Part shown: in pieces, positions 1 through 38,700 of the stretch | Numbering within the stretch: the first letter of the stretch is position 1 | How the letters are laid out: each line of letters starts with the position of its first letter | From: Trichoplax sp. H2 | Lineage: Eukaryota | DNA length: 64,000 bases | Direction of reading: 5' to 3' | NCBI GenBank assembly: GCA_003344405.1 | Contig: NOWV01000146.1 | Span: 1-64,000, forward strand | The notes under the pieces: generated by a model | Seen by the model: only the letters and a program-made list of their open reading frames with translations | Databases searched by the model: none | Told to the model about the DNA's origin: nothing | Made by a program: the position numbers and the translations under genes

Positions 1-3000
1 CCTGACTGCAAGTGCAGAAACTGTCAATGCACATCAGACTGCAAATCATCCTGTGCAAAGACCTGCGACTGTTCTGGTTAGTTGAAACAAGTTCAATGAA
101 TACTCTACAGTCTACAGTCTACAGTAAACTGTATTGCAGATCTCAGTTGACTGCGTTATTTTCAATGTTTATGTTTAGCTGGCAATTGCAAATGCTGTTG
201 TCATTGCGACTGTAGTAACTGTCAATGTACATCGTGCAGCAAATCAACCAGTGGAAAAACTTGCGACTGTTCAGGTCAGTTAATAAAAGCATATAACGTA
301 AACACCATTTCTTAAACTATATCAGTTAAATAAATGTAATCACATAGTAATAATATCGTCGCTTCCCTATCTCGGTAATAGCGTATTACAGTAATCGAAT
401 TGTTTCTGGTATTTTAATATTTAGACGATAATTGCACATGCTGTTCTCAATGCAACTGCACGAGCTGTAAATGCACATCATGTACTAAGTCGTCGAATGA
501 AAACACTTGCGACTGTTCAGGTAAGTTAAAACAAATTAAATAAATACCATTTCTTATAGATAGGACTTACAATAATAATAATTAATTATAATCGAACCAA
601 TATAATCAGACATTACTCATTTCCTCACTTCCCTCCCTACCTTTTAGTAGTATTACATACTGTACGTACATATGCTATTTATATAGTGTATTGATTTATT
701 TGTTTGTGACTTTTACATTTAGCTTGCGATTGCAAAAACTGCTCTGATTGCAACTGTACTAGCTGTAAATGCACATCATGCAGCAAATCGTCGAGTGGAA
801 ACACTTGCGACTGCTCAGGTCAGTTAATAAAGAGTCAAATAAATAATATGCGCTACCTTAAGAGATATAATTTATATATTTATTATATTGAGAATATATC
901 ACAAGATATTACTCGTATTATTACTTTCCTATGCTTGTAGTAGCGTGTTAATTTTATCGTTTCTGGCCATTACATTTAGCTTGCAATTGCAAGAGCTGCT
1001 CGGATTGCAACTGTACTAGCTGTAAATGCACATCATGCAGCAAATCGTCCAGTGGAAATACTTGCGACTGCTCAGGTCAGTTAATAAAAGAGTCAAATAA
1101 ATAATATGCGCTACCTTAAAGAGATGTAATTTATTTATTATATCCAAAATATATCACAAGATATTACTTGTATTGTCACTTTCCTATGCTTGTAGTATCG
1201 TGTTAATTTTATCGTTTCTGGCCTTTACATTTAGCTTGCAATTGCAAATGCTGCTCTGATTGTAACTGTACTAGCTGTAAATGCACATCATGCAGCAAAT
1301 CGTCCAGTGGGAACACTTGCGACTGTTCAGGTCAGTTAATAAAGAGTCAAATAAATAATATGCCCAACTTTAAAGGGATGTAATTTATTTATTATATCGA
1401 AAATACATCACAAGATATCACTCGTATTGTCACTTTCCTATCCCTATAGTAGCGTATTAATTTTATCGTTTCTGGCTTTGCATTTAGCTGGCAATTGCAA
1501 ATGTTGCTCTGATTGTAAATGCACTAGCTGTAAATGCACATCATGCAGCAAATCGTCCAGTGGAAACACTTGCGACTGTTCAGGTCAGTTAATAAGAATT
1601 AAATAAATAATTTGCCCAATTTTAAGGATATAATTTATTCATTATATCTAAAATATATCACAAGACTTTACTCGTATCGTCACATTCCTATCCCTGTGGT
1701 AGCGTATTAATTTTATCGTTTCTGGCTTTCACATTTAGCTTGCAATTGCAAATGTTGCTCTGATTGTAACTGCACTAGCTGTAAATGCACATCATGCAGC
1801 AAATCGTCGAGTACAAACGCTTGCGACTGCTCAGGTCAGTTAATAAAGAGTCAAATAAATAATATGCCCAATTTTAAAGAGATATAATTTATTTATTATA
1901 TCTAAAATATATCACAAGACATTACTCGTATAGTCACATTCCTATCTCTGTGGTAGCATATTAATTTTATCGTTTCTGACTTTTACATTTAGCTTGCAAT
2001 TGCAAATGTTGCTCTGATTGTAACTGCACTAGCTGTAAATGCACATCATGCAGCAAATCGTTGAGTACAAACACTTGCGACTGTTTAGGTCAGTTAATAA
2101 AGAGTCAAATAAAATAATATGCCCTACATTAAAAAGATGTTATTTATTATATCTAAAATATATCACCGGATATAACTCGTATCGTCGCATTCCTACCTAG
2201 TTAGTAGCATATTAATTTTATCGTTTCTGACTTTTACATTTAGCTTGCGATTGCAAATGTTGCTCTGATTGTAACTGTACTAGCTGTAAATGCACATCAT
2301 GCAGCAAATCGTCGAATGGAAACACTTGCGACTGTTCAGGTCAGTTAACTTCAATAAAGAATCAAATAAATAATAAATATTATGCACTACCTTAAAGAGA
2401 TGTAATTTATTTATTATATCTATAATGTATCACAAGACATTACTCGTATCGTCGCATTCCTACCAAGTTAGTAGCGTATTAATTTTATCGTTTCTGGCCT
2501 TTACATTTAGCTGGCAATTGCAAATGCTGCTATTATTGCAACTGTACTAGCTGTAAATGCACATCATGCAGCAAATCGTCCAGTGAAAAAACTTGCGACT
2601 GTACAGGTCAGTTAATAAAGAATCAAATAAATAATAAATATTATGCACTACCTTAAAGAGATATAATTTATTTATTATATCTATAATATATCACAAGATA
2701 TTACTCAAATCATCACATTCCTATCCCTGTAGTAGCGTATTAATTTTATTGTTTCTGGCTTTTATACTTAGCTTGCAATTGCAAGAGCTGTTCTGATTGT
2801 AACTGTACGAGCTGTAAATGCACATCATGCAGTAAATCGTCAAGTGGAAACACTTGCGACTGTTCAGGTCAGTTAATAAAAATTCAAATAAATAATATAC
2901 ACTACCTTAAAGAGATACACGTATTATTTATTTACTGTATCTAAAATACGTCACCAGATATTACTCGTATCGTCACTTTCCTATCCTCTGGTAACGTATT

Positions 3001-6000
3001 AATTCTATCGTTTCTGGCTTTTACATTTAGCTTGCAATTGCAAATGCTGTTCTGATTGTAACTGTACTAGCTGTAAATGCACATCATGTAGCAAATCGTC
3101 GGATGGAAACACTTGCGACTGTTCAGGTCAGTTATTAAAGAATCAAATAAATATATGTACTACCTTAAAAAGATGTAATTTATTTATTATATCTATAATA
3201 TATCACCGGATATTACTCATATCATCGCATTCCTACCTAGTTAGTAGCGTGTTAATTTTATCTTTTCTGGCTTTTACATTTAGCTGGCAATTGCAAATGC
3301 TGTTCTAATTGTAACTGTACGAGCTGTAAATGCACATCGTGCAGAAAATCGTCGAGTGGAAAAACTTGCGACTGTTCAGGTCAGTTAATAAAGAGTCAAA
3401 TAAATAATAAATAATATGCACTACCTTAAAGAAATATAATTTATTTATAATATATCACAAGATATTACTCAAATCATCACTTTCCTATCCCTGTAGTAGC
3501 GTATTAATTTTATCGTTTCTGGCTTTTACATTTAGCTTGCAATTGCAAATGCTGTTCTGATTGTAACTGTACTAGCTGTAAATGCACATCTTGCAGCAAA
3601 TCGTCCAGTGGAAAAACTTGCGACTGTTCAGGTCAGTTAATAAAGAATCTAGTAAATATATATATTACCTTAAAAAGATGTAATTTATTTATTATATCTA
3701 TAATATATCACCGGATATTACTCGTTTCGTCGCATTCCTACCTAGTTAGTAGCGTATTAATTTTATCGTTTCTGGCTTTTGCATTTAGTTGGCAATTGCA
3801 AATGCTGTTCTGATTGCAACTGTACTAGTTGTAAATGCATATCATGCAGCAAATCGTCCAGTGGAAGCACTTGCGACTGTTCGGGTCAGTTAATAAAGAA
3901 TTAAATAAATATATGTACTACCATAAAAAGATGTAATTTATTTACTATATCTAAAATATATCACAAGACATTACTCGTATCGTCGTATTCCTACCTAGTT
4001 AGTAGCGTATTAATTTTATCGTTTCTGGCTGTTACATTTAGCTTGCAATTGCAAATGCTGCTCTGATTGTAACTGTACTAGCTGTAAATGCACATCATGC
4101 AGCAAATCGTCGAGTACAAACACTTGCGACTGTTCAGGTCAGTTAATAAAGAGTCAAATAAATAATATGCCCAATTTTAAGGAGACATAATTTATTTATT
4201 ATATCTAAAATATATCACAAGACATTACTCGTATCGTCGCATTGCTATCCCTGTAGCAGCGTATTAATTTTATCGTTTTTGGCCTTTACATTTAGCTTGC
4301 AATTGCAAAAGCTGTTCTGATTGTAACTGTATGAGCTGTAAATGCACATCATGCAGCAAATCGTCGAGTGGAAAAACTTGCGACTGTTCAGGTCAGTTAA
4401 TAAAGAGTCGAATAAATAATAAATAATATACACTACCTTAAAGAGATGTAATTTATTTATTATATCTATAATATATCACAAGATATTACTCGTATCGTCG
4501 CATTCCTACCTGGTTAGTAGCATGTTAATTTTATCGTTTCTGACTTTTACATTTAGCTGGCAATTGCAAATGCTGTTATTATTGCAACTGTACTAGCTGT
4601 AAATGCACATCATGCAGCAAATCGTCCAGTGGAAACACTTGCGACTGTTCAGGTCAGTTAACTTTAATAAAGAATCAAATAAATAATAAATATTATGCAC
4701 TACCTTAAAGAGATGTAATTTATTTATTATATCTATAATATATCACAAGACATTATTCGTATCGTCGCATTCCTACCAAGTTAGTAGCGTATTAATTTTA
4801 TCGTTTCTGGCTTTTACATTTAGCTGGCAATTGCAAATGCTGCTATTATTGCAACTGTACTAGCTGTAAATGCACATCATGCAGCAAATCGTCGAGTGGA
4901 AAAACTTGCGACTGTTCAGGTCAGTTAATATTAAAGAGTCAAATAAATAATAAATAATAAGCACTACCTTAAAGAAATGTAATTTATTTATTATATCTAT
5001 AACATATCACAAGACATTACTCAAATCATTACATTCCTATCCCTGTAGTAGCGTATTAATTTTATCGTTTCTGGCTTTTACATTTAGCTTGCAATTGCAA
5101 AAGCTGTACGAGCTGTAAATGCACATCATGCAGCAAATCGTCGAGTGGAAAAACTTGCGACTGTTCAGGTCAGTTAATAAAGAGTCAAATAAATAATAAA
5201 TAATATACACTACCTTAAAGAGATGTAATTTATTTATTATATCTAAAATATATCACCGGATATTACACGTATCGTCACATTCCTACCTAGTTAGTAGCGT
5301 ATTAATTTTATCGTTTTTGGCTTTTACATTTAGCTGGCAATTGCAAATGCTGTTATTATTGCAACTGTACTAGCTGTAAATGCACATCATGCAGCAAATC
5401 GTCGAGTGGAAACACTTGCGACTGTTCAGGTCAGTTAATAAAGAGTCGAATAAATAATAAATAATATGCACTACCTTAGAAAGATGTAATTTATTTATTA
5501 TATCTAAAATATTTCACCGGATATAACTCGTATCGTCGCATTCCTACCTAGTTAGTAGCGTATTAATTTTATCGTTTCTGGCTTTTACATTTAGCTTGCA
5601 ATTACAAATGCTGTTCTGATTGTAACTGTACTAGCTGTAAATGCACATCATGCAGCAAATCGTCCAGTGGAAAAACTTGCGACTGTTCAGGTCAGTTAAT
5701 AAAGAATCAAATAAATAATAAATAATATGCACCACCTTAAAGAGATGTAATTTATTTACTATATCTATAATATATCACCAGATATTACTCGTATCGTCAC
5801 TTTCCTAACCCTGTAGTAGCGTGTTAATTTTATCGTTTCTGACTTTTACATTTAGCTGGCAATTGCAAATGCTGTTACTATTGCAACTGTACTAGCTGTA
5901 AATGCACATCATGCAGCAAATCGTCGAGTGGAAACACTTGCAACTGTTCAGGTCAGTTAATAAAGAGGGCAGTTAATAAAGAGTCAAATAAATAATAAAT

Positions 6001-7369
6001 ATTATGCACTACCTTAAAGAGATATAATTTATTATATCTATAATATATCACCGGATATTACTCGTATCGTCGCATTCTTACCTAGTTAGTAGCGTATTAA
6101 TTTTATCGTTTCTGGCTTTTACATTTAGCTTGCAATTGCAAGAGCTGTTCTGATTGTAACTGTACTAGCTGTAAATGCACATCATGCAGCAAATCGTCCA
6201 GTGGAAACACTTGCGACTGTTCAGGTCAGCTAATAAAGATTCAAATAAATAATATGTAATACCTTAAAGAAATATAATTTATTTATCATATCTATAATAT
6301 ATCACCAGATATTACTCGTATCGCCACTTTCCTAACCCTGTAGTAGCGTGCTAATTTTATCATTTCTGGCTTTTTATATTTAGCTTGCAATTGCAAAAGC
6401 TGTTCTGATTGTAACTGTACGAGCTGTAAATGCACATCATGCAACAAATCTGCAAGTGGAAAAACTTACGACTTTTCAGGTCAGTTAAAACAAGTTAAAA
6501 TAACACTATTCCTTAAAGATATAATTTATACTCGAATAAACGTAATCAGACACTACTAGTATCGTTAATCTGCAATTCCTGTCGCAGTGTATTAATGTAA
6601 TTGTTTCTGGCTTTTACAATAGCTTGCAATTGCAAATGCTGTTCCGACCGCAATTGTACTAGCTGTAAATGTAAATGTACATCATGCAGCAAATCACCAA
6701 GTAAAAAAACTTGCGACTGTTCAGGTCAGTTAAAAACGAGTTAAATGAATATATATGTCTTAAAGATATTTATTTATCTTCATTTTATTATCATTGAATA
6801 AAATGGGATCAGACATTATTCGGACCTTCGCTTTCCTAATTCTGTATTAGCATATTGATATCTCTGTTTCTGTCTTTACATTTAGCAGCCAATTGCAAAT
6901 GCTGTTCTGATTGCGACTGCACTAGCTGCAAATGTGCATTATGCTGTAAAGCACTGAGTGGAAAGACTTACAGCTATTCAGGTCAGTTAGAGATACATTT
7001 TATAATAGCCGGATAAATATAATTGGACATTGCTTGTATTGTCGTTTTTCTTATACTTGTAGTAATATATCAAAGTTCATTGTTTCTGATTTTTACTTTT
7101 AGCTGGCAACTCTAAGTGCTGTTGTGAATGTGGCTGTACTAGCTGCGAATGCACGTCATGCAGTAAATCTGCTAGTGGAAATACTTGCGACTGTTCAGGT
7201 TAGTAAAGTGAATACAATATCTTAAAGTAATCAGATATTAATCGGTTATTACGTTTCTATTCATGTAGTAGTGTATTAATTTCACTGTATCTGCCTAATA
7301 TATTTAGCTACGAATTGCAAATGCTTTCCTGATTGCGATTGCAATATCTGCAAATGTACTATTATGTAA
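1..7369 (+). CDS. Giant multi-domain metallothionein-like Cys-rich protein, 5'-partial, 30 repeat exons visible (~940 aa in window)
   Basis: Phase-1/phase-1 exons, mostly 96 bp, bounded by ..TAG / GT(C/T/A)AG: <1-76, 179-274, 425-520, 723-818, 980-1075, 1235-1330, 1488-1583, 1739-1834, 1993-2088, 2244-2339, 2511-2606, 2772-2867, 3031-3126, 3284-3379, 3536-3631, 3789-3884, 4042-4137, 4296-4391, 4557-4652, 4824-4919, 5088-5168, 5334-5429, 5595-5690, 5856-5951, 6129-6224, 6384-6479, 6623-6724, 6886-6981, 7103-7198, 7308-7369 (TAA). Consensus unit ACNCKCCSDCNCTSCKCTSCSKSSSGNTCDCS (10-11 Cys per 32 aa, Ser/Thr/Lys-rich). No stops seen in exons 1-29. Confidence 0.85.
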
Positions 7370-7410
7370 CAAATCATCTAATGAATAGAGTCGCGGTTGT
7401 CCAGGTTAGT
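1..7410. repeat. Tandem array of ~250-270 bp exon+intron units (about 30 copies)
   Basis: Both the exon and the intron (gtcagttaataaagagtcaaataaat...ttttatcgtttctggcttttacatttag) recur. Central copies are near-identical; edge copies are diverged. Confidence 0.97.
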
Positions 7411-7522
7411 TAAAACAAATTTAAATTAATTCTGTATTATAATAAAACAAATGTGCTTAGCATTATCTAATCACAACTTGTGGAATTCACGCTTTAACTC
7501 TATTCTCTATCAATCATCACAG

Positions 7523-7554
7523 GAAATGCAGCCAGCTATAATTATAAGAAATAG
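7523..7554 (+). other. Candidate (decayed) terminal exon of the MT-like gene
   Basis: CACAG acceptor; the phase-1 reading gives GNAASYNYKK-stop followed by ECVNHSRSKGCRK. AATAAA at 7792. Confidence 0.45.
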
Positions 7555-9161
7555 GAGTGTGTCAACCACAGTCGTTCAAAAGGATGCAGGAAGTTAATTT
7601 GCCATAGCTTTTACAATGAAACCTTCATCTTTTACATGGGTACCTACTATCAATTGTTTACCGCTTATCGATAATAATTACATTCTAAAATATCTTGTTT
7701 AAGCGTTATAACCATAACAATAGACAGTTCGACTATTCGGACACATACTCAAATTATAATTACTGCACCAATGCGCTATGCTAAGAAAATCAATAAAACT
7801 ATTATTTTGAATCTATCTTGTGGAAGTCTTACTAAAAAAGTACAATACTAATTTTATCTATCACTACTAGCGATAACTAAAATTTCTATCGCATTTTAAT
7901 CATAACTACGCGGATGAATAATGTTTGCACCTTGATGAGCTACTAAGAAGTTGGTGCATGTATCTGCTGAGTAATTTAATAAATAAATCATATTTGACTT
8001 AATTACCAACCGAGATTTAATATTGGTGTACGAGGATATTTCACTTAAAGTAAAAGGAGCATAGAGCTGTTCGTATGATCTAAAATACATATAGTTAATT
8101 AATTATATCAAAGACGTTTAAGAGTAAAAGTGCAAGGCAACGATTAACATCCAAAAAGGGTACAGTAATTAGCAGCTACAGTACATTAAACAGTACCGTG
8201 CAGTTTAAATTGAGCCTGTTAGGTGTCTAAAGTAAAAATAATGCTGTAGTTTCTAAATCTTCACAGTTCCAATAATTAGCAATTTGAAACACATTCTATC
8301 TAGGTAGTGCCGTATAAGACTCATTAAACTAAAAGAATTTGATAGTGATTTCGTACATCTACGAAAACATCAGCAAAGCTAGAATCGACACTAATACTTA
8401 TAGGAGAAAATTATAATTAGGTACCGGGTCAAAAGGAATAATCATCGCAGCTAAATTATACACATAAACATGGTACAGTGCAAAATAGATTTGCAATAGA
8501 AGTGGCCTTTTCGAAATGTTTATTCATTAAGTTGCCATTGTAATTTAATGCAATAATGCGGTATTTTGCACGTACAGAATAAATGTATCACTGTTTCACG
8601 TTATAGCTTACTAATTTGCATATCTTTCTACTAATTGTATTTGTCGTAATTAAGATTGCTACACTTACAATTGATCTTCTAAAATTAAATTTCATACCTC
8701 AGCCTCCTTGATTACTCTAGATTAAAATAAGGCTATACAAACACTGTGAAAGTATCTTTTGACTATAGTCATTTTTTACATCGCTTATCGGGATTGCAAT
8801 ATGCTGTAGTACGATACTCGTTGAAATCCGTACTTTATGGTATAGCCTAGATGAATCAGAAAAATTAATCGAAACTTCTTACCAGAAGCCAAAATTAAAT
8901 ATGTGAAACTAACTAGAGATAAAATAATAGACGATAACTTTCTTACTAAATGTATGAGCGATGACATCATTAAAAAGTAATGCGTGAAAAGTTAAAACAT
9001 CTATAGCTTATGACTACTAGAAATTTATGGACCAATTACTGAACTTCTATCCATTTAAATCATAGTAAACCTGAATAAGTCTAATATTTCAATCTAGTAT
9101 AAATACCGATTTTATGCCCTTAATTAAAATAGTATGGCAATTTATCCTGTTTGCCAACAAC

Positions 9162-9991
9162 TTATCCAATTACAGTTCCGCCGAACCACCAATTTGTAGT
9201 AGCTGTTGAGCTATTAGTACACCTAAATCTAGGATTTTCAGTTTGATATCGACCGAATGCCTCCTCATTAGCTATAGTGTCAGGAATTCTCAACCGTGAG
9301 CAAGCCTGTGTTACTCGTGAAACATCAATAAATGTATGAAACTTATTGTTACCATAATAAATAGGAATACTACATTGCCGACATGAAAAACCTTGAATAT
9401 TAAAGAAATCGACGGTAGCACAAGTGTAGCCAGAAGATGTGCCAAACATATTGTATCGGCAAAGTGCAACCCTCAGATAGTCACGATGATCCGTTAAACC
9501 TTTATCTACTTCGGCATTAAAATTACACGTAGCACGTAGATAATTGGTGCCAGGATTATTCTTGATGGATAGCATTCTGGATTTGGAAAGTCGGAAATCA
9601 GACCAGTTAACTCCACAATCTTCAGATTCTGCATCGTATGCAAAGTTTTTTCGATAATTGGACGTTTTTGCTTTAGCTAAGGAAAGAGACTCAATTAGCG
9701 TCCAAGCAAAACCTGAATCTGATTCAAAATCACAGTATGTTGCAAAAGGTTTATTTGTGCTATCAAATAGGACATAGTATCCATTTCGTTGAGCTGCTAA
9801 TTCCCTTGCATGTAGACATGATTTAGGTTTGATCGGCTGATAGAATTGAAAATTGATAAAATGTTAATTTATAAAATTTGTAACAAATGTCATATTTGAC
9901 AAAAGAAAAAATGAATTTTTAAACTTACTGTCAGTATTACTGACTGTACCAGACCGAATAAAATGAAAACCGGTAGCTGAATCGATTTCAT
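9162..9991 (-). CDS. Secreted Cys-containing protein with fibrinogen/intelectin-like N-terminal subdomain (245 aa), paralogue 1
   Basis: Exon 1 9991-9929 (MKSIQLPVFILFGLVQSVILT, signal-peptide-like); 92-bp GT-AG intron; exon 2 9836-9162 with SC..NGYY..TYCDF..GFAWTL motif and C-terminal NPRFRC..TTNWWFGG. Confidence 0.85.
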
Positions 9992-12368: not shown

Positions 12369-13195
12369 ATGTCGATTTGGTTCTCTATAGCCATTTTATC
12401 TGTTCTAGTACCATTTGTGCAATTGACGGTAAGCTGAAATTGCTTAAACTCCTTTATACGTTGTTATAGAATCCGCTTAGGTACAATAATGGACTAAATC
12501 TGTTTCCATACCTTTTTTAGCCAATAAGACCTAGATCATGCCTTCAAGCCAAAGAATTAGTAGCTCAGCGCAACGGCTACTACGTACTATTTGATAGCAC
12601 GAATAAACCCTTCATGACTTACTGCGATTTTGAGTCTGATAAAGGTTTTGCTTGGACATTGGTCGAGTCTCTTTCTTTAGTTAAGGCAAAGACATCTAAA
12701 TATCAAAAAAATTTTTACTATGACGAAGAATCTGATGTTTGTACAGTCAATTGGGCTGAATACCGACTTTCAAAATCTAAAATGCTATCAATCTACCAAA
12801 CACCTGGCTCCGATTATGTTCGAGCCACCTGTAATTTTAATGCTGGTATAGATGGAGGTTTAATTGATCATCGTGACTATTTCCGCGTTGCAACTTGCCG
12901 TTATAATATCTTTACCATATCTAATTCTTTTGGTTGTATATCCCTCGATTACTTTAATGTACGAGGCTATTCATGTCGCAAATGTTCGGTTCCAGTTTAT
13001 TACGGTAGGTCAAACTATCACACTTTTATTGATGTCTCGAGAGCGACACAGAGTTGTTCAAGATTGAAAATACCTGAAACTATAAATAATGAAGAAGCTT
13101 TTGGCCGATACCGAACTGTTAATCCAAAATTTAGATGTAGTACAAATTCTACATCAACTACAAATTGGTGGTTTGGAGGAACTGTAATCGCGTAG
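12369..13195 (+). CDS. Secreted Cys-containing protein with fibrinogen/intelectin-like N-terminal subdomain (244 aa), paralogue 2
   Basis: Exon 1 12369-12428 (MSIWFSIAILSVLVPFVQLT); 92-bp intron; exon 2 12521-13195 (PIRPRSCLQAKELVAQRNGYYVLFDSTNKPFMTYCDF...). Colinear with the minus-strand paralogue. Confidence 0.88.
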
Positions 13196-16551: not shown

Positions 16552-17673
16552 TTACGTAACATTATTAGCTAGTACCTGTGGTCGATTAGAAACAGGCCGA
16601 ATCTTTTGCAAATTTCTCAGTGAACGTTGAGAAATATTTGTAATACGCAAAAAAATAAAAATAAATGGGTCAATTACACAGTTAGAGTAGGATAATAATG
16701 TCGCAATTGGCCAATATAGAGAAAGCGACTCAAAGTTAAATGTTTGAAATAGGGCACAAACTAAAAGAAAGGTAATGGGAAGATAAACAACAGCATTAGT
16801 GAGAACTATGCAAGCCAGCATAACATTAATCCGATGTTGTGTTTTATAAACAAGTTCTGACGTATGTCTTCGAAGACTTTTTCGCAATCTGCAGCTAATT
16901 TTAATATATAAAATGATACTTGCAATGCAGGATGCAGTATTCATAAAAACTTCAAAAGCTGACAAGTATAAAATGAAGCCTACTGTTACCGGCTGGCATA
17001 AATGCACAATAATATTGTATTGAAATATGAAGTTAGTCTGCTGAAGGATCCATTTCATCATAAAATCGGAGCCAATAGTGATAGTTAATGAAAGAATTAA
17101 GCTTACTAACCAACCGAAACAAATGAATAATTTTGTGGCATTCATATTAAATTTTTGACCATGAATTGGATGATAAATAGCCAGATAGCGTCGAATCGTA
17201 ATGAAAAGGGTAAACATATTAGCACAACCTAATCCAATTTGGCTAAAAAAACGAGCAGCAGAGCATAGATGATTGATGATCCATGTGTCTTCTAAGGCAG
17301 TAATATTGCCTAGGTGAGGACTTAAATACAGGTTTCGATTAATAGCCTTACTACTGTTCAAGGTACCGTTAGAAACGTAATTTGCTCTGAGGAGGGATAT
17401 TAGGTCTCCACTATTCATGATACTAAAGTAAATACTGCTGCCTAAATCTGCTAGGGCTAAGTGTAATAATACTAACAGCGCAGGGCTATTACGAATGCTA
17501 AGGGTATTAAATCTTTTATTTCTTCGCAATTGTAAGCCCTTTCGTTGTCGGCTAGATAGCAACAATGATAATATAACAAATATATTACCTAAAACACCAA
17601 ATATACCCAAACCCCAAGATATAATACGAAGAGAATTGTATTTTAAATATACAGTTTGATTATAATTCCGCAT
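16552..17673 (-). CDS. Rhodopsin-class (family A) GPCR with LGR-like TM region
   Basis: 373-aa ORF with seven hydrophobic segments: GN in TM1, LALAD in TM2, Cys before TM3, RRY at the DRY position, YLP in TM6, NCVIDPFIF in TM7. The frame stays open up to a splice acceptor at 17730, so an upstream exon is possible. Confidence 0.9.
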   Translation of the reverse strand: MRNYNQTVYLKYNSLRIISWGLGIFGVLGNIFVILSLLLSSRQRKGLQLRRNKRFNTLSIRNSPALLVLLHLALADLGSSIYFSIMNSGDLISLLRANYVSNGTLNSSKAINRNLYLSPHLGNITALEDTWIINHLCSAARFFSQIGLGCANMFTLFITIRRYLAIYHPIHGQKFNMNATKLFICFGWLVSLILSLTITIGSDFMMKWILQQTNFIFQYNIIVHLCQPVTVGFILYLSAFEVFMNTASCIASIILYIKISCRLRKSLRRHTSELVYKTQHRINVMLACIVLTNAVVYLPITFLLVCALFQTFNFESLSLYWPIATLLSYSNCVIDPFIFIFLRITNISQRSLRNLQKIRPVSNRPQVLANNVT

Positions 17674-20600
17674 GTCGATGTTTAATTTAGCAATTGCTGT
17701 GCAATAGTAATTTATATCATTGTATAATACCTAGCAAGAGAAAAAATCACCTTGTTGTGAGATCAGAATTGCAAAAGATTAACAATTAAATTCTCATAGC
17801 CAAAAGAAACCTAGAAATTTAGAGTAATTGACGTCTATACATGATAACTAAAAGTGCTGTAGAGAAAGAGAATTCCGTCATTGTAAATTATTACCAAATT
17901 TTACACAACCGTCAGCTGTAGCTGGAATACTTTTTAAATGACTTCATGTAATGTGTTTAAGAATCAACGCTACCAATGACTGCTATTTCACTTCAATTTA
18001 TCTCCATTAAGGCTAAGCCAAAAAGTGATCCCTTCTATATATTGAGATATTAGAAACTAAGTATAAAAATTATATTCGATCAACTGAGCTAACTTATTTA
18101 ATTAGTAAAAAATAAATATTATTGACTGGTAATATAACTTAAGCTAGTCTAAAGCCAATGTATCACAAACGAATGGCAAAATCAAAGCTAAATGAAATCT
18201 TCAATCTCACAGGACACTTATCGTAGCCTATATACTAATATTTTATATATTTCGCAAAGTAATATACAGATACAAATAACTACGGTATTTTAAGTAATTT
18301 ATCATTAATTATTTATCACGGTTTTGTTCCGATATTGAAAATATAGCTTAGCAAATTAGCCGACTTCCCGAAATTTCAACCCATGACTGTTTCGAAGCCA
18401 TGTTGATAAAGCTATGCGGACTTATTAATATACTGTAAAATATGTAATAGCAATATTAATGAGGATAAAGAATTATGTCTAAACCTAGGTCATTCTTACT
18501 ATTGTGAGTCAGTGAATCAGCAGGCATTGCTATAGCATGAACGTAGCATCGCATAAAATTCCTTCCTTGATTTCGGGATCGTTTAAGTTTCTTACACTTT
18601 CTCCATACGAAATTGATGGGAATAATAGTATAGAATATGTGCGTGCAAGAACTAAAGAACAATAATAGTGGTTGTTTTGCGTTTCAACTTTTCCTACAGA
18701 CCCGCACTGCTTCACATCTACTTTATGATTTTATTTGGTATTACCTTATATTTTAATTATCCAAAGTTGGTAATTAAAGAGCAATAGTCACAGTTCTTTT
18801 AAATTTCAACTTTTCCATTAAATCTGCACCGCTTCACAGCACATAATTTGATATCACCTTATATTGCTTTCAAAATCCAAAGCTAGTCATAAAATGATAA
18901 GATAGCCTAATAAAACTTCATCAGCTGCAATGCTTCGTAGAAGAATCTAAACTGACTTTAAACTAGTTGCTTGCTGGTTGAAACTTAATTTCTGATTGTA
19001 AGGTTATTATTTAGAGACAGAAAAACCATAGTTACCAAATAATACTTTTAGCAATCGCGCGTACTATTTACTAATTAAACACGCAATTAACTTTAATTTC
19101 AAGAAAATTGATGCCATAGTAACTTCATAATGAAATGATATATATCATAAAGATGAAGTCTTTATTTGATGCAAATAACCATAAGTTTAAGATTTGCGAT
19201 TCATCGATCATATCAGTGTTATAACAGTACATCGTTTAATTTTACTGTCCCTCTGCTATACTCAGCTACTATTGAACATTCGCATTAACTATAGCAGCTT
19301 CCAACAATTTTAATATATTTCACTAATTAGTTTCTTCGATAACTAGTTAAGGTTACGGTAATCCCTTTTATTCTAAGGATCCAACTTTTCAAACTAAAAT
19401 ACTTGTTTTCTATCTCGTCAAATAGTATAATGATATCGGGAAATTTTAGCAAATTGCACTAGTTACAAAGACAGTACCGCATCCAATTAAACTAAGAAAA
19501 TAGAATTCTTTCACGAAATAATTATTCATAGTGAATTAATCCAGGTGTTTCGAGGCAAACCTGATAAAATATGATATACGAATATATTTATTATTATTAC
19601 ACCAAAGCAGCTAATAATTACAGCGAACAACGACTTGAAGATTGAAGTAGACATTTACAGCGCTTTAGGACGATTACTCATTAAAATCAATGCCCAGAAT
19701 TAGCCTTTCCGAAAATATGAATTAATCATCCAATGATGTCATGCGATTAATTATAGAGCAGATAAAGCTAAATACCCATTCAGAGAAGAATTCAATGAGC
19801 ACATAAAAATTTTAATTCAATAGCGAAATTGCTTGGGTTTGAATATCATAGCTGTTGGTCTCATTAATCAAATCGAAAATTATTTTTTTCCTATTGCGTA
19901 TTCAGTAACTCATACAAGAACTGTATCGTCATTAAATTTTGCAAATAGTTGATATACGTTTTACTTCTCGTACCTATTACAGTAAATCGAACTAGTATCG
20001 GTTATGAAGGCATCTGCTCGTATCTATAATAATGAGTATAGGCTTTTAAAACCTATACTCATCTATAATAAGTGAACATATAAGATACACATTCAAATTA
20101 GACTCATTAAATCCCAATCTATTTTTGTAATCACCTGAAATACACATTAAAATATCACTGATTTTGAAGTGGTGCACATAACTTTACAGTAATCATCGCA
20201 CGCACATTTTTGTGACATAAACATTTATTTTATTTTATAGGTAAGACAATTTTAGCTGAATGAGCAATGATATTAGAGTCGTTGCCTTAATTATAGCAGA
20301 TTTAAATATTTTGTAATCATGTAAAGTAGGTTATTTTCAAAGGAATTCATTATCAATCATTTTCTGCCGATGAAATATCTTTCTTAACTTCTATAGCATT
20401 TGCCTTGAGTTATTACGGTATTGCCAGTGTATTAAGTTAGGTTAGGTCCCAGGTTACAAAATTAAAATACTTTTACACGCTTTACAAGCTAATGAACAAC
20501 TTTAACCCTAAAATATGCTTTTGGAATAAATTTTATCACTATAAAAATAAATCTTTTGAATATTTAACCGCAAAAATAAGCACTGGTAAATATAAAATAT

Positions 20601-23409: not shown

Positions 23410-26400
23410 TCAGTCACTAATTGAAAGAGAAAATTACGTGATTATGATGCAACTAAGTAATTGTATGCTGCAAACGCTGCTGTAATCATTTAATTTCCAA
23501 GTACTGTGCATACCTTTCGCTGGATAAATTACATTCTAGATCTGTTGGCGTGTAGACATCGCCATCATCGATGTCCGTTGAATTACTAGAAACAGATGGA
23601 ATGCTGGCATAGTCATGGTCTTGCGAAACAGTTTGCTGGGCAAAAGGAGATGCGCTATCGACTACCATAGACGGAGAAATATTCAATAGACAGTCATCGG
23701 ACATTTCCTCTTTCGTGGCGATATTTACTGGATTATCAGACTCTTCACACAGCAATTTCGAATCAGATTCCTGAGATACCATGCCTGGAGAGCTTTGTGA
23801 GGTATCATACTCTTCATCTTTACTGTCTGATTCAATATCGCTATTTGCTGAAACTATATTACTGTCAATACCTTTATTTACCGTCTCGGAATTGGATTCT
23901 GTATCAATTGTACGTTTACGTGTTTGACCGCATTCGATAGCACCATCAATTAGATCGTCATATTCTTGGAAATTGTAGTTTATTTCCTTTCGAGCACGAT
24001 TTGATCGGCGACTAGTAGAATCATCATTCTGAAGCTATAGAAATAATAAATGATATTACAGCGCCGTAACAATACATATTGCATATCATGAAGCGAATTT
24101 AAAAATGCAATTATATGAAAAACCATTTCTGACATTGATAATATTGCTATAATCAAGACCATTCATTTTCATTCTAGTAAGAAGGCGAAATAAGCTCACG
24201 TTAAATATAACGGTAAACGATTACTTAATTTTCATTGGCAGTTTTACTAACCGTCTGCTCGCTCTTTCGAGAGCTCTTTGCTTATATTCTAACTTTGTAA
24301 TGTTATCTTTAAGATTTTTGGCAAGATTGATCTGAATTAAGAATACCGCAAAGTAAACCTATGCTTAGCCATCTTCAATTAACCTTTACATTATCTTATA
24401 ATATCAAGAACGTATAATATCCTGTTTATACATTTTAACGATGCCTCAATAAAGTAGGGGATAGTTTTATTTCCTACTTTCAAGTTGTCAGTATCTGCAT
24501 AATCTGTAATTGTACAGAAAATAAACAATCCAGTTACCTCATCGCAAAACGGGCAGTAAAAGTTGCCATCAGGAATTACAAATAGCGGAGGTCGAAGACA
24601 ACTCATATGATATCCAGCATTGCATGAATCACACAAAAGAATCTAAAAGCCAAACATAATTAGCTGTTATTGGTAGATTCCGCAAATACAATTACTTTAC
24701 AAGAAAATGGCAGTTTCTGTTATTTCAAGTAAAAATTTCTAACCGTTGCTGGTGATGCACAACTAAAGCAAGCCGTGCAAGGCTCATCCGCATCATTTTC
24801 CCAATCATCTGAAGCACGCTTTCTAGATTTTTTAACAAACTTACGAGCATCTTCGCGTGGATTCAACTGTATGCGATCAGATAATATTTCATGGATACTA
24901 CATAATTGCTCGTAGTTTCTATAGTATTAAAATACAATAAAACTGATTTAATCTTTATATCTATTCCAACTTGATAAACTCCTTCACTCGTATAACTTCA
25001 CCTGCAAACCACTGTCCATGTGGAACTATCATCATCATCCTCTTCTACAGTATACAATCGAAGATTACATTCTTCATCCTAATTTTTTACGCAAAATATC
25101 GATAAGGAAAGGTTATTTGTACATGATAATACAGATAATTAATGGTGGAACGGTTAAAACTGAGGCATTCTTGCATATTTAATTTACAAGAACTTAGCAC
25201 AAATTACGTTGCAAGGTCACTTAAAATTTACACGTAATGATGTCAAAATTTGTTATCTGTAAACTGAATGTGAAGATATTGGTATCATACGAAGTATCTC
25301 TTGTTAGAATAGTTTGACAAGAAACATACTAATAGTTACAACAAATCAAAATCTATTTCATGGAGAATGGATAGCATAAACCTTACCTGCTGGTACCAAT
25401 AAACTAACCCAAAGCGATCTCTGCCTATTGGCTGCTGCCGCAATTCCTTAGCAAGGAATGGTCTAATGTTCGTTTTCAGTTTTAGATTTTTGTCAAATTG
25501 CGCTTCACAAAGCACCTACAGTACAAATAAAGTTCATATTTAATTAGATAACGTTTATTATGGCATGTTGTTAGCATGTTTACTTGTACAGTTGTAAACC
25601 CGGATAAAAAGGCATCTGAATAAATTTTAATGCTTGTAGTAAATAATCAATGCACGAGTAACATACTTTTGTCACAAAAATTTTACTCTTGAGTGAAAAT
25701 CCATCATAGTCAAATTCTTCCATTTCCCATAATACTCTTTTTTCGCCGTCGTATTCTCGTGCTAGCTGCAAAAGAGCAGGTGCAGGTTACCAGAGTAATA
25801 TAACTAACAGCCGCAAGAACTAATTAAGTATGCTAAAAGTGGTGACGTATATAAGCTAAATCGCTTAACTTTATGCGTCGTTTGCTAATCTAAAGTGATG
25901 TTGGTTAACAAGCCTCTTAAACAACCTCAATAATAAATAAATAAAAGGATGCTGCTCTGGTGAATGATTCACTTCTGAGTTAGTAAAATAATTTTCACTT
26001 ATACTTCTCATGGTTACTCTTACAATGCAGGTCTTCTTAACGCCACTAGTAGATCAACGAATCGTTTGATTCATTGGAGTCATTATTACAGTTCATATAG
26101 CCATATAGTATCAATGTATGAATGCACAGTCTAAATCCTATTTAACTTGCATGAACATGTGCGTACCTAAAGGCTGTTGTAATTTTTCATCAGCAATGAA
26201 CCGTGATAAAACTGCAACTATTTGAAAAGGTTATGATTTCCTTAGCTCATTTACGCATTATAAATTAATAATACCGATATTCTTCGTAATCATACGTATT
26301 ATAATCTATTTATGGCGTTTCAGGTAAAGTTGATCCTGCATTCGATTTATAACTATGGTCATCCTGTAATTGCATAGCACTGTAACCTCAATTAAGAAAA

Positions 26401-35718: not shown

Positions 35719-38700
35719 TCACATAGTTTTTGTATGGTAACATAACTTTGCGGGAAATACTAAAAGTGTGACACAGTATCAAGTTTAAAATATATAATTT
35801 CCATATTTCAGCAAGACTATTCAGTAGAAATGCGCTGATATATGGTAATAATAAGTAAAGAACCTTATTTTTCCAAGAAGTCCAGCTAGATAATACGGGT
35901 ACATCTAATTATGTCAATGCTAATAGAATATATAAATACCGTAATACTTACGCCTATTAAAGCTATGCGCTTGATTTTTCTTCAGATTATTACTTTTTTC
36001 CGATTCTGTTATGCGAAAGCAGCAAATGAAATTTCTCATAATTGTAACGGTATGATCAATGAATGTTTTAGTAAACATTGTGTATAGAATTGGATTGATA
36101 CATGAATTTAAAGGCAAAGATAAGACGGCAACAAATGTTAATAAATGAGTCTCCAACTCAGATATAACTATGCCACGAATCAATACAATGTATAATGGTA
36201 GCCAACATATAAGATCAGTAGCTACTATTGTAATCATTTTAGCAAGAACAATTTTTTCCAAAGTAGATATTTTCCGCCTGGCTGCTTTGCGTGATTTAGT
36301 TAAATCGATTATAATGGTAAAATACATAATGCTAATGATGATCCAGATCATGAATGTGACACCACAGTAAGTTAGTAACCATAATTGCAAGATTGGATTT
36401 TCGATATTACCAGGTAGGCAGACAGCATTAGTGGCATATAAACGATTGTATGGAGGCTGATTATTGCCATAAAGTAGCGGTATGCCCGCAAACATAACTG
36501 CAATTGACCAAAATATAACGAAAATGAATATAACCAGTCGCCTTGACAACCGATAGTTATGAAATGGGTAGATTAAGAATAGAAAACGGTCTACTGTGAT
36601 GATAAACATAATGAGTGTTGACATTAACGTCGAAACTGAGACAAGAAATGATGATGCTAAGCAAAATGGACTCCTTAACCAAACTTCGTGATATTGGGAA
36701 AAGTGTCCGGCAAAATAGACGTTAGCTGATGCGATAATAATTAAGTACAATCCCATCAATAAATCAGCAGCAGATAGATTAATAATTAGTGCTCTGACTA
36801 TAGTATCATCTTTCTTTTTAACACTTGCATGCCACATAATGGATAAAATATTTTCAATGATAGATAGAATACCAACAAGCCAAATAAAAATTCGTAATAT
36901 TTCATGTGATAAAATATCATTACACGTTGAAAGGCTGAATTGATTAGGTAACGGTCGGCATATACTAATAGTCTTTGGGGCATGGCAACATAGATATTCT
37001 CGAGATGAAAATCTAAAAATCAAAGTTACGCCTATTATATATAGAAACATCTTTGGCTATCTGCATTAAGAATTGCATTTCCTTCACATTACTAGGAAAA
37101 TTAATTTTCGAAGTTAATCAAATACTATATTTAAGCTTGTTTCTTAAAGTTTAAATGACTTAAGCATTGAAAGATGTTAAAAATGACGTCGATTGAAATA
37201 TATCGATAGCAATTAATATATAAGAGACATTTTTATCTCTTAAGTCGCACGATATTAAACTCATAATTAACCTATGATCCCAGAACTAAAGCAGGGATGG
37301 CTTAATTAAAGCATCCACTATACTGTACTGTAATGGAACTCTATTTTGTGCGGCAGGGGTTATTGACTGACCTATGATATTAATAATAATTGCTAAATAA
37401 GAATAGAATTTAGGTTACTTACTGTCACAAAACAGCTTTGCAACAAGATAACGCAATATACGATCAATAAGTCAATTCCTTGAACCATGTATCAAGGAAT
37501 GATATCTGCACTATCACAAACACTTTTTTGCTCAACTAGCAGACTATACAAAGACTTAGACGCCTCGTATTTTACGTTAAACACTAAGTTTGAGAATTCA
37601 CTTTATTACACGATATACTGCATTTATATACTATTCCTCAATAGCTCATGAGTCATAGTTAATACAATTAACATTGGAATCATTTACTGAATTAGATATT
37701 AATTTTAGCTACTGCTCCCTTAATGCAGACAACAGTATTTACGAACATAGACATGTAATGACTAATACAGAATAGTCAGATTACGATATGTCCTATCACG
37801 GAACATTTCCATGATAATTTGCAATCTACCATAAGTAAATTACAATCACAATGATTGGAACAGTAAGTAGATGATTTGTATTTCCTATTATAACTATTAA
37901 TTTCAGTATGTGTATAAGTGTCACTGTCATAAAAAGTCAGTGCTATATTAAAACACAGTATATCCAAATTAGAAGTTAACTAAATAAGGATAGTCTAACA
38001 GAATTATCCTAACATAGATATTTCTACTGTAATACAGTATATAACACTGTAACACTTACAGATCCGTTATTTCGCCAGCTCCAATTAATGAATATCTGGA
38101 GAATTGAATCAAAGGATTGTTTTTTATGTTTCTGTGAAAATGAAATTGCAAGGATACTGAGTCGATTAAAATCTCAACTAGCCACAAACTTAGTAGATTT
38201 GAATGTGTAATCATTTTTATGGTCAATAAAATAGCGATTTCTCCAGGTAATAAATACCAAGAAACTTCTCTATTCACTAGTTTTGAATTCTTAAAGTTTC
38301 GAGCAGTAATCGTAGGGTATTTAATCATTATTAGACTGGATAAATCGGAGATTTCGTCAGGCAATAAATACATTGCAATTTATTATCTACTATTCTTGAT
38401 TAAAATAATTTTCTTACAGTTGTCGTAATTTTTTAAACCCCGCTAAACAGTATGGTCCAAGCGTCACGATGTTATTATCGTCGACACTCCTAAACAGGTA
38501 TATTTTCGATTTCGTTAGCTAAATTTGTTTAATACCTTATGATCAATTTAATATTCTATAAAAATAAATGTTACATCAATGTAGAACTAAGCATATCTTT
38601 TAATAGGTAGATTTACACGTACAAAAGTTCCAAATTTGAAGATGCAGCGTCAGGAGTTGTACATATATCAGTTATATTATTTCTATTAAGAAGCCTATGT

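Follow-up and report, generated by a model that had tools for sequence, protein, structure and literature searches.

The closest described systems to the gene reported here are the multimodular metallothioneins, in which a short cysteine (Cys)-rich domain recurs along a single chain. In the tunicates, Oikopleura dioica OdiMT2 has 399 amino acids (aa) and 123 Cys in six t-12C/12C repeat units (PMC8283569), and Botryllus schlosseri BscMT1 has 365 aa and 105 Cys in nine 12-Cys repeats (Zn36; PMC8476144). The 9md-MT and 10md-MT proteins of the gastropod Alinda biplicata are 287 and 319 aa long, and in 2020 only OdiMT2 had been reported to be longer (PMC7084494). Domains with 9 Cys bind three divalent ions (PMC7084494) and those with 11 or 12 Cys bind four, and capacity scales with repeat number (PMC8476144); the vertebrate beta domain is given as [CxC]x5[CxC]x3[CxC]x2[CxC]x2Cx3 in the latter source, which also records that specialists call metallothionein evolution a "black hole." Animal metallothioneins have been characterized mostly in chordates and molluscs, and a spider protein of 110 aa was termed large in 2026 (PMC13168519); a 2016 title refers to a long metallothionein of the fungus Tremella mesenterica as "the longest metallothionein currently known" (PMC4755600). 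Our literature search found no metallothionein longer than 399 aa, no description of a placozoan one (subscription journals and supplementary tables were outside its scope), and nothing relevant on MTF-1 in placozoa or on Trichoplax with metals. Here we report on a 64,000-nucleotide (nt) stretch of Trichoplax sp. H2 DNA (contig NOWV01000146.1, positions 1 to 64,000; the whole stretch is referred to as the window), of which positions 1-7833 are best explained as the 3′ part of a protein-coding gene whose product is probably a giant multimodular metallothionein.

Tandem Repeats Finder reports a single tandem array at 684-6488 (period, 261; 22.6 copies; 86% matches), and inclusion of more diverged units widens it to 1-7404, giving 30 exon-plus-intron units in total. 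From the sequence, the exon in each unit was read as the G+C-richer stretch (the window profile runs from 29 to 37% G+C, as suits an AT-rich animal genome), with TTTAG ahead of it and GTCAGT behind. All 30 donors are GT (GTCAGT in 25, GTTAGT in three, and GTAAGT and GTCAGC in one each), and all 29 acceptors are AG, 27 of them within TTTAG. Exons 2 to 29, the 28 complete internal exons, are all multiples of three in length (96 nt in 26, 81 nt in one, and 102 nt in one), and the length changes of −15 and +6 nt are both in frame. They are symmetric and of phase 1-1, each beginning at the second position of a codon and ending on a first codon position, whereas the introns of the array (102 to 202 nt) are spread 14/8/7 over the three modulo-3 length classes and are thus under no frame constraint. 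When exons 1 to 30 are spliced there are 938 open codons followed by a TAA stop at 7367-7369; because the 5′ end, start codon, and promoter are upstream of the window, 938 aa is a minimum length. The first-pass annotation had proposed that an apparent 260-bp satellite is in fact one spliced open reading frame (ORF) of about 940 aa with about 300 Cys and a 5′ end outside the window, and this proposal stands, with 938 aa and 298 Cys. No other Cys-rich stretch was found in the window past 7450, and no tRNA genes were found in it. The features of the gene are listed below, with RNA joints from the RNA-Seq runs X19 and X20, which belong to one study, and from X18, a probable RNA run of another study.

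Exon 1, 1..76, plus strand: incomplete at the window start; diverged, with 25 codons and one further base; donor GTTAGT at 77.
Exon 2, 179..274, plus strand: 96 nt; diverged edge unit, best unit identity 77%.
Exon 3, 425..520, plus strand: 96 nt; diverged edge unit, best unit identity 70%.
Exon 4, 723..818, plus strand: 96 nt; the homogenized core starts here.
Exon 5, 980..1075, plus strand: 96 nt.
Exon 6, 1235..1330, plus strand: 96 nt; its translation, P0001, is the consensus unit.
Exon 7, 1488..1583, plus strand: 96 nt.
Exon 8, 1739..1834, plus strand: 96 nt; unit 93.7% like unit 17.
Exon 9, 1993..2088, plus strand: 96 nt.
Exon 10, 2244..2339, plus strand: 96 nt; unit 95.1% like unit 19.
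Exon 11, 2511..2606, plus strand: 96 nt, Tyr-Tyr variant; unit 93.6% like unit 20.
Exon 12, 2772..2867, plus strand: 96 nt.
Exon 13, 3031..3126, plus strand: 96 nt.
Exon 14, 3284..3379, plus strand: 96 nt.
Exon 15, 3536..3631, plus strand: 96 nt.
Exon 16, 3789..3884, plus strand: 96 nt.
Exon 17, 4042..4137, plus strand: 96 nt.
Exon 18, 4296..4391, plus strand: 96 nt.
Exon 19, 4557..4652, plus strand: 96 nt, Tyr-Tyr variant.
Exon 20, 4824..4919, plus strand: 96 nt, Tyr-Tyr variant.
Exon 21, 5088..5168, plus strand: 81 nt; a 15-nt in-frame deletion leaves an 8-Cys module.
Exon 22, 5334..5429, plus strand: 96 nt, Tyr-Tyr variant.
Exon 23, 5595..5690, plus strand: 96 nt; Tyr in place of one Cys.
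Exon 24, 5856..5951, plus strand: 96 nt, Tyr-Tyr variant.
Exon 25, 6129..6224, plus strand: 96 nt.
Exon 26, 6384..6479, plus strand: 96 nt; joint 6477>6621 (cut +2) to exon 27 in X19, X20, and X18; loose ends before 6382-6385.
Exon 27, 6623..6724, plus strand: 102 nt, 6-nt in-frame insertion; joined at both borders in RNA of X19 and X20, with 27 nt on the shorter side.
Exon 28, 6886..6981, plus strand: 96 nt, diverged edge unit; in the 274-nt X20 contig with exons 29 and 30.
Exon 29, 7103..7198, plus strand: 96 nt and diverged; an extra 3 nt follows 7166 in RNA contigs from three runs.
Exon 30, 7308..7404, plus strand: decayed last unit with 20 codons, TAA at 7367-7369, 35 nt of 3′ untranslated region (UTR), and a used donor; joints 7196>7306 and 7401>7520.
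Last intron, 7405..7522, plus strand: 118 nt, GT..AG, inside the 3′ UTR; skipped in X19 (side 80) and in two X20 contigs.
Last exon, 7523..7833, plus strand: non-repeat 3′ UTR; end uncertain.

The repeat exons are transcribed and spliced, and RNA contigs join the last five predicted exons. Parts of 1-7700 occur in 20 sequencing runs; X19, X20, and three probable RNA runs contain 0.12 to 0.18 of the sampled words and probable DNA runs about 0.5, and exon-only words are estimated to make up about one quarter of the region. Contigs of X19, X20, X16, and X18 were placed on 6230-8000, a diverged 3′ region in which no exact internal repeat exceeds 18 nt; the parts left uncovered carry no information, and contig depth cannot rank expression. 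Introns 26 to 29 are skipped with GT..AG ends and precisely at the predicted borders, 6480-6622 and 6982-7102 by contigs of X19, X20, and X18, and 6725-6885 and 7199-7307 by contigs of X19 and X20, in agreement with the earlier claim that the "satellite" is a real spliced gene. A fifth intron that had not been predicted (7405-7522, GT..AG) is skipped in X19 and X20 and joins exon 30 to a 3′ UTR exon at 7523, which places the stop codon 35 nt upstream of the last exon junction. Exons 28, 29, and 30 are joined in a single 274-nt X20 contig, with at most one differing letter per piece. The contig letters directly upstream of exon 26 look, by inspection, like the 3′ end of a repeat exon and not like intron, so that this junction would also be spliced if the reading is correct. 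X16 contigs have no joint on 6230-8000. The in-frame 3-nt insertion in exon 29, present in contigs from three runs, corresponds to one extra linker Ser.

We note three further observations on these contigs. At 6468 in exon 26 the window has TAC (Tyr) at a position that is Cys in the unit consensus, and the spliced exon 26-27 contig has TGC (Cys) in X19 and the window's A in X20; the site looks polymorphic for Cys and Tyr within a single module, and some differing letters on exon 26 may stem from core exons aligned onto it. The 3′ end of the transcript is uncertain, with AATAAA at 7792-7797, two contigs that end at 7828 and 7833 (a weak hint), and others that reach 7910. Past 7910 the window sequence is no longer followed by contigs of X19 or of X18 (the latter running on for 255 letters), and a separate X18 contig of 2113 nt (depth, 116) begins at 7881; a further transcript or some structural difference may lie immediately downstream of the gene near 7910.

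Purifying selection acts on the Cys-rich frame. Only 4 stops interrupt the +1 frame of the spliced sequence, compared with 18 to 94 in the other four frames, and an open frame alone is thus weak evidence in a repeat of this kind. However, differences among the 22 core 96-nt exons occur at 0.069, 0.058, and 0.143 per site at codon positions 1, 2, and 3, respectively, with the third position differing 2.1 to 2.5 times as often as the others. The ratio of nonsynonymous to synonymous differences (dN/dS) between repeat exons, by the pooled Nei-Gojobori method, is 0.22 in the Cys frame versus 1.6 and 0.68 in the shifted frames. Mean identity is 91.0% across the core exons and 87.8% across the core introns (82.6% with gaps counted). 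Core intron columns deviate from their consensus at 8.7% of letters, and yet the 88 splice dinucleotide positions of the 22 core introns hold no change, with about 7.7 expected (P ∼3e-4). The proportion of synonymous differences (pS) between repeat exons is 0.24, about twice the intron difference of 0.12 (723-6479); TGT/TGC toggling and transition bias probably inflate the Nei-Gojobori pS between repeat exons.

The 938-aa product has 298 Cys (31.8%), 212 Ser, 100 Lys, 90 Thr, 75 Asn, and 56 Asp; C, S, K, T, N, D, A, and G together account for 898 of its 938 residues, and there are only 16 aromatic residues (14 Tyr, 2 Phe, and no Trp) and one His. The exon consensus encodes 20 Cys-rich residues, then an 8-residue Ser-rich linker, and then CxC, which correspond to the main part of one module, the linker, and the first CxC of the next module. 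The exon-encoded unit is thus a permuted module, and whole modules span exon junctions. Reading across the junctions gives 29 modules of about 24 residues, with 10 Cys in 17, 11 in 8, 9 in 1, and 8 in 3, so that 25 of the 29 carry 10 or 11. Three main spacing patterns composed of CxC, CC, and Cx2C cover 23 of the 29: [CxC]x4[CxC]Cx2[CxC]x2[CxC]x2C in 10, [CxC]x2[CxC]xCCx2[CxC]x2[CxC]x2C in 7, and [CxC]x2[CxC]x2Cx2[CxC]x2[CxC]x2C in 6. Cys is swapped for Gly or Ser at two module positions and is lost in modules 26, 28, and 29 near the 3′ end.

The first-pass annotation had described each unit by the skeleton [CxC]x4[CxC]x3[CxC]x2[CxC]x2C and the product as a chain of at least 29 beta-type domains resembling those of vertebrates. 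The skeleton is complete in 18 of the 29 modules (those with the first two patterns, plus module 1) and the number of modules is as claimed, but the skeleton is only a sub-pattern of modules that carry 10 or 11 Cys and that are therefore not 9-Cys beta domains. The resemblance to the vertebrate beta domain is real but is one of pattern only, with x4 in place of x5 as the first spacer. The unit had also been likened to the closing letters of the vertebrate beta domain, which are a matter of general background.

As a class, metallothioneins have roughly 15 to 35% Cys, with CxC, CC, and CxxC motifs in domains of 9 to 12 Cys, few aromatic residues or His, and a low molecular mass; they form metal-thiolate clusters of defined stoichiometry and are cytosolic, with no signal peptide and a metal-inducible promoter. 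The Cys content of the Trichoplax product (31.8%) is close to those of OdiMT2 (31%) and BscMT1 (29%), the CxC, CC, and CxxC motifs occur in domains of the 9-to-12-Cys kind, and aromatic residues and His are as scarce as noted above. At the level of the motifs of particular groups the modules differ: the first spacer and the Cys number per module depart from the vertebrate type, and the alpha-type pattern occurs nowhere; nor does any module fit either tunicate 12-Cys pattern, [CxC]x5[CxC]x2Cx2Cx2[CxC]x4[CxC]x3-6CC or Cx3Cx2Cx2Cx3Cx2[CxC]x2Cx4[CxC]xCC. The range of 8 to 11 Cys per module, odd counts included, would be tolerable for a thiolate cluster but not for a fixed disulfide framework, and the composition, the density of motifs, the Lys beside Cys, and the absence of a hydrophobic core look like those of a metal-thiolate protein and would be difficult to square with a fixed disulfide fold. 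In a language-model look-up against Atlas clusters, metallothionein clusters were nearest for two unit variants (0.84 to 0.85, with 175 to 176 shared features), scores that, being below 0.9, are a lead only; the ten best family-bearing matches all fall in one family or clan, as they do for one third of shuffled proteins.

If the product is a metallothionein, each module would form a metal-thiolate cluster around three or four divalent ions or a larger number of Cu(I). Because domains with 9 Cys are reported to bind three divalent ions and those with 11 or 12 Cys to bind four, 29 modules would by analogy bind about 90 to 115, and one chain might buffer or sequester roughly that many Zn or Cd ions. 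Metal binding itself, a stoichiometry of about 90 ions, and a cytosolic location are all putative. Gain, loss, or skipping of units would alter capacity with the frame unbroken, because every internal exon is symmetric.

Several observations weigh against a metallothionein. A profile search against metallothionein families yielded nothing: six single units (32 to 34 aa) have no Pfam family at an E value of ≤10, although this is a weak negative as the units are short, and there was specifically no match to the vertebrate-type metallothionein family PF00131, to extracellular Cys-rich repeats, or to CXC-type domains. A profile of 28 units searched against solved structures (E ≤10) found no metallothionein and only a ribosomal protein at an E value of 5.2, and the unit profile had no matches among 1.84 billion representative proteins. 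In control searches this profile scored its own spliced protein at 1136 bits and a single unit at about 48 bits (E ∼1e-7 at a library of 1.84 billion), such that a close relative would have been detected among these representatives. Because the unit profile found no relative there, the case for membership in the metallothioneins is solely one of composition and motif, and a resemblance between Cys motifs of different phyla is known to give false impressions of homology (PMC8476144). A 58-aa stop-to-stop reading of one repeat exon with its flanks gave five candidates, none significant, among longer proteins, and no candidate among proteins of 31 to 102 aa. An AlphaFold2 model built on the unit alignment is uninformative (predicted local distance difference test [pLDDT], 66; predicted template modeling score [pTM], 0.22).

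Features of the protein and of the RNA also count on this side. A Tyr-Tyr pair occurs in six units and makes up 12 of the 14 Tyr, for which we note that functional gastropod metallothioneins with aromatic residues have been reported (PMC7084494). At 938 aa or more the product is not of low molecular mass, although neither are the accepted multimodular metallothioneins of 287 to 399 aa. An N-x-T sequon and a Ser/Thr-rich linker are present in every unit and would also fit a secreted glycoprotein, and a signal peptide is possible with the N terminus upstream of the window. Two of the five RNA joints are weaker, as their shorter side spans just 27 nt and is 90% alike, unspliced contigs are present (for example, X18 over 7101-7602 and X19 over 6952-7130), and RNA contigs cannot demonstrate translation, full-length transcripts, or abundance.

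The alternative that best survives these considerations, although we regard it as unlikely, is a secreted or extracellular Cys-rich protein of structural, adhesive, or mucus type, with disulfides or cross-links and glycosylated linkers and sequons. The linker of eight Ser-rich residues and the sequon in each unit are as such a protein would have them, the upstream N terminus leaves room for a signal peptide, no metallothionein family is matched at the sequence level, and very long tandem-repeat proteins are usually extracellular. However, 10 or 11 Cys in about 24 residues (>40%) with CxC spacing and no hydrophobic core would be far denser than in known small disulfide folds, the variable and often odd Cys counts (11 in eight modules) would leave Cys unpaired, the extracellular Cys-rich repeats of Pfam are unmatched, and the nearest Atlas clusters, as a lead only, are all metallothioneins. 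Less probable again is an intracellular Cys-rich protein with some other main role, such as a thiol or redox buffer, a sulfur store, or a scaffold of Zn clusters of the CXC/pre-SET type, with metal buffering incidental at most. The sequence facts are identical for this explanation and for a metallothionein, and Zn3Cys9 clusters also occur in CXC domains that are not metallothioneins; but the Pfam CXC-type domain is unmatched, scaffold domains are not known to run to 29 tandem copies in the absence of any other type of domain, and the two explanations partly overlap, since metallothioneins are themselves credited with redox roles. A young repeat expansion with no protein function, in which the exon array is transcribed but goes untranslated or is decaying, is very unlikely. 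In its favor, the 3′-most units have decayed (modules 26, 28, and 29 have lost Cys, and a decayed unit contains the stop), the +1 frame is almost open too, and support for the gene so far is at the DNA and RNA level. Against it, the dN/dS of 0.22 is confined to the Cys frame, all 28 complete internal exons are divisible by three where introns vary freely, the splice sites are invariant against the changes expected, the indel between strains in exon 29 is in frame, and the sequence is present in runs labeled as two organisms.

We therefore return to a giant multimodular metallothionein as the probable product, and the array suggests how its gene may have grown. Whole units (exon plus following intron) 4 to 25 have best-partner identities of 89 to 95%, and units 2, 3, and 26 to 29 are only 68 to 79% identical to any other unit, the usual picture of an array whose core appears homogenized by unequal exchange and whose edges have diverged. 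The best-partner pairs 8/17, 10/19, and 11/20 lie on one diagonal with an offset of 9, which points to duplication of a multi-unit block. To judge from the divergence of the units at the window start, the array's 5′ edge may be close by; however, the window may begin at a contig end, and 938 aa is accordingly a minimum. The gene would have grown from a unit of about 255 nt, exon plus intron, that unequal crossing-over multiplied into 30 or more exons of 96 nt, symmetric and of phase 1.

The remainder of the window holds several other ORFs. The single-exon ORF at 12521-13195 (plus strand; 224 aa) is 100% identical to TrispH2_008131 of Trichoplax sp. H2, and a second single-exon ORF at 9162-9863 (minus strand; 233 aa), divergently oriented to it, is most likely TrispH2_008130, its 71%-identical neighbor. 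Trichoplax adhaerens relatives are labeled "Fibrinogen C-terminal domain," and neither ORF has a Pfam match at an E value of ≤0.001. ORFs 16552-17730 and 35920-37056 (both minus strand) have rhodopsin-family seven-transmembrane domains (PF00001; E values of 7e-16 and 4e-28, respectively) and look like single-exon G protein-coupled receptor genes. An open stretch at 23486-24034 (minus strand) of 182 aa, rich in Asp, Glu, and Ser and with no Pfam match, is possibly an exon of a larger gene.

The product of the array, like any close relative of it, is absent from the protein libraries searched, while its neighbors are annotated, and annotation appears to have missed it, as the first-pass reading had anticipated. 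The practical warning is that a gene with 96-nt exons can resemble a satellite, and atlases of expression built from read counts over annotated genes may have overlooked this one. If the product binds metal, a chain with 29 or more modules and approximately 300 Cys would be over twice the size of the present record holder, modular expansion through duplication of exons would reach much further than is known, and there would be a non-bilaterian reference for asking whether the CxC-rich beta-type domain is of ancient or convergent origin. The stronger claim, of a first placozoan metallothionein that is also larger than that of any other organism, with a module truly homologous to the bilaterian beta-type or 11-Cys domain and alike in the order of its CxC motifs, is improbable. 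If such deep homology were true, the beta-type domain and the gene structure would predate the split of Placozoa and Bilateria, contrary to the current scenario of an origin within bilaterians. In mammalian metallothionein genes the first intron is in phase 1 and is located between the first and second CxC, a phase and position that the placozoan gene may share.

Among known metallothioneins, the vertebrate proteins share with the Trichoplax product the 9-Cys skeleton, present with its x4 first spacer in 18 of 29 modules, and a Lys/Ser linker behind the module, but the placozoan first spacer is one residue shorter, each module has one or two extra Cys, and there is no alpha domain. The Tremella mesenterica protein, reportedly of about 257 aa and Cu binding, is alike in its internal repetition and large size, and is from a different kingdom; its description as the longest known reflects the title of the 2016 report. 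The multidomain metallothioneins of Alinda, as described in PMC7084494, also consist of many near-identical short Cys-rich domains with linkers, the first domain and one internal domain being the most diverged. However, the Alinda genes described there are intronless and encode 9-Cys domains, whereas the placozoan gene has 30 exons and 10 or 11 Cys per module and its product is about three times as long. The tunicate proteins OdiMT2 and BscMT1 resemble it in having a tandem module of 10 to 12 Cys, about 30% Cys, abundant Lys and Asn, and no other domain type. They differ in size, as the placozoan protein has at least 29 modules, with 938 aa and 298 Cys in the window alone, and is more than twice their length; the suggestion that it is among the largest multimodular metallothioneins thus holds, if it is a metallothionein, relative to the 399 aa of the longest in print. 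The placozoan Cys pattern is also unlike both tunicate patterns listed in Table 1 of PMC8476144. Each placozoan module corresponds to one small symmetric exon, whereas PMC7084494 depicts a class with one large repeat-holding exon, which we read as the O. dioica gene. Lastly, Placozoa is a non-bilaterian phylum, and metal binding of the placozoan protein is putative. Multimodular metallothioneins are already known, and what is new here is the extreme size, the phylum, and the architecture of one module per symmetric 96-nt exon.

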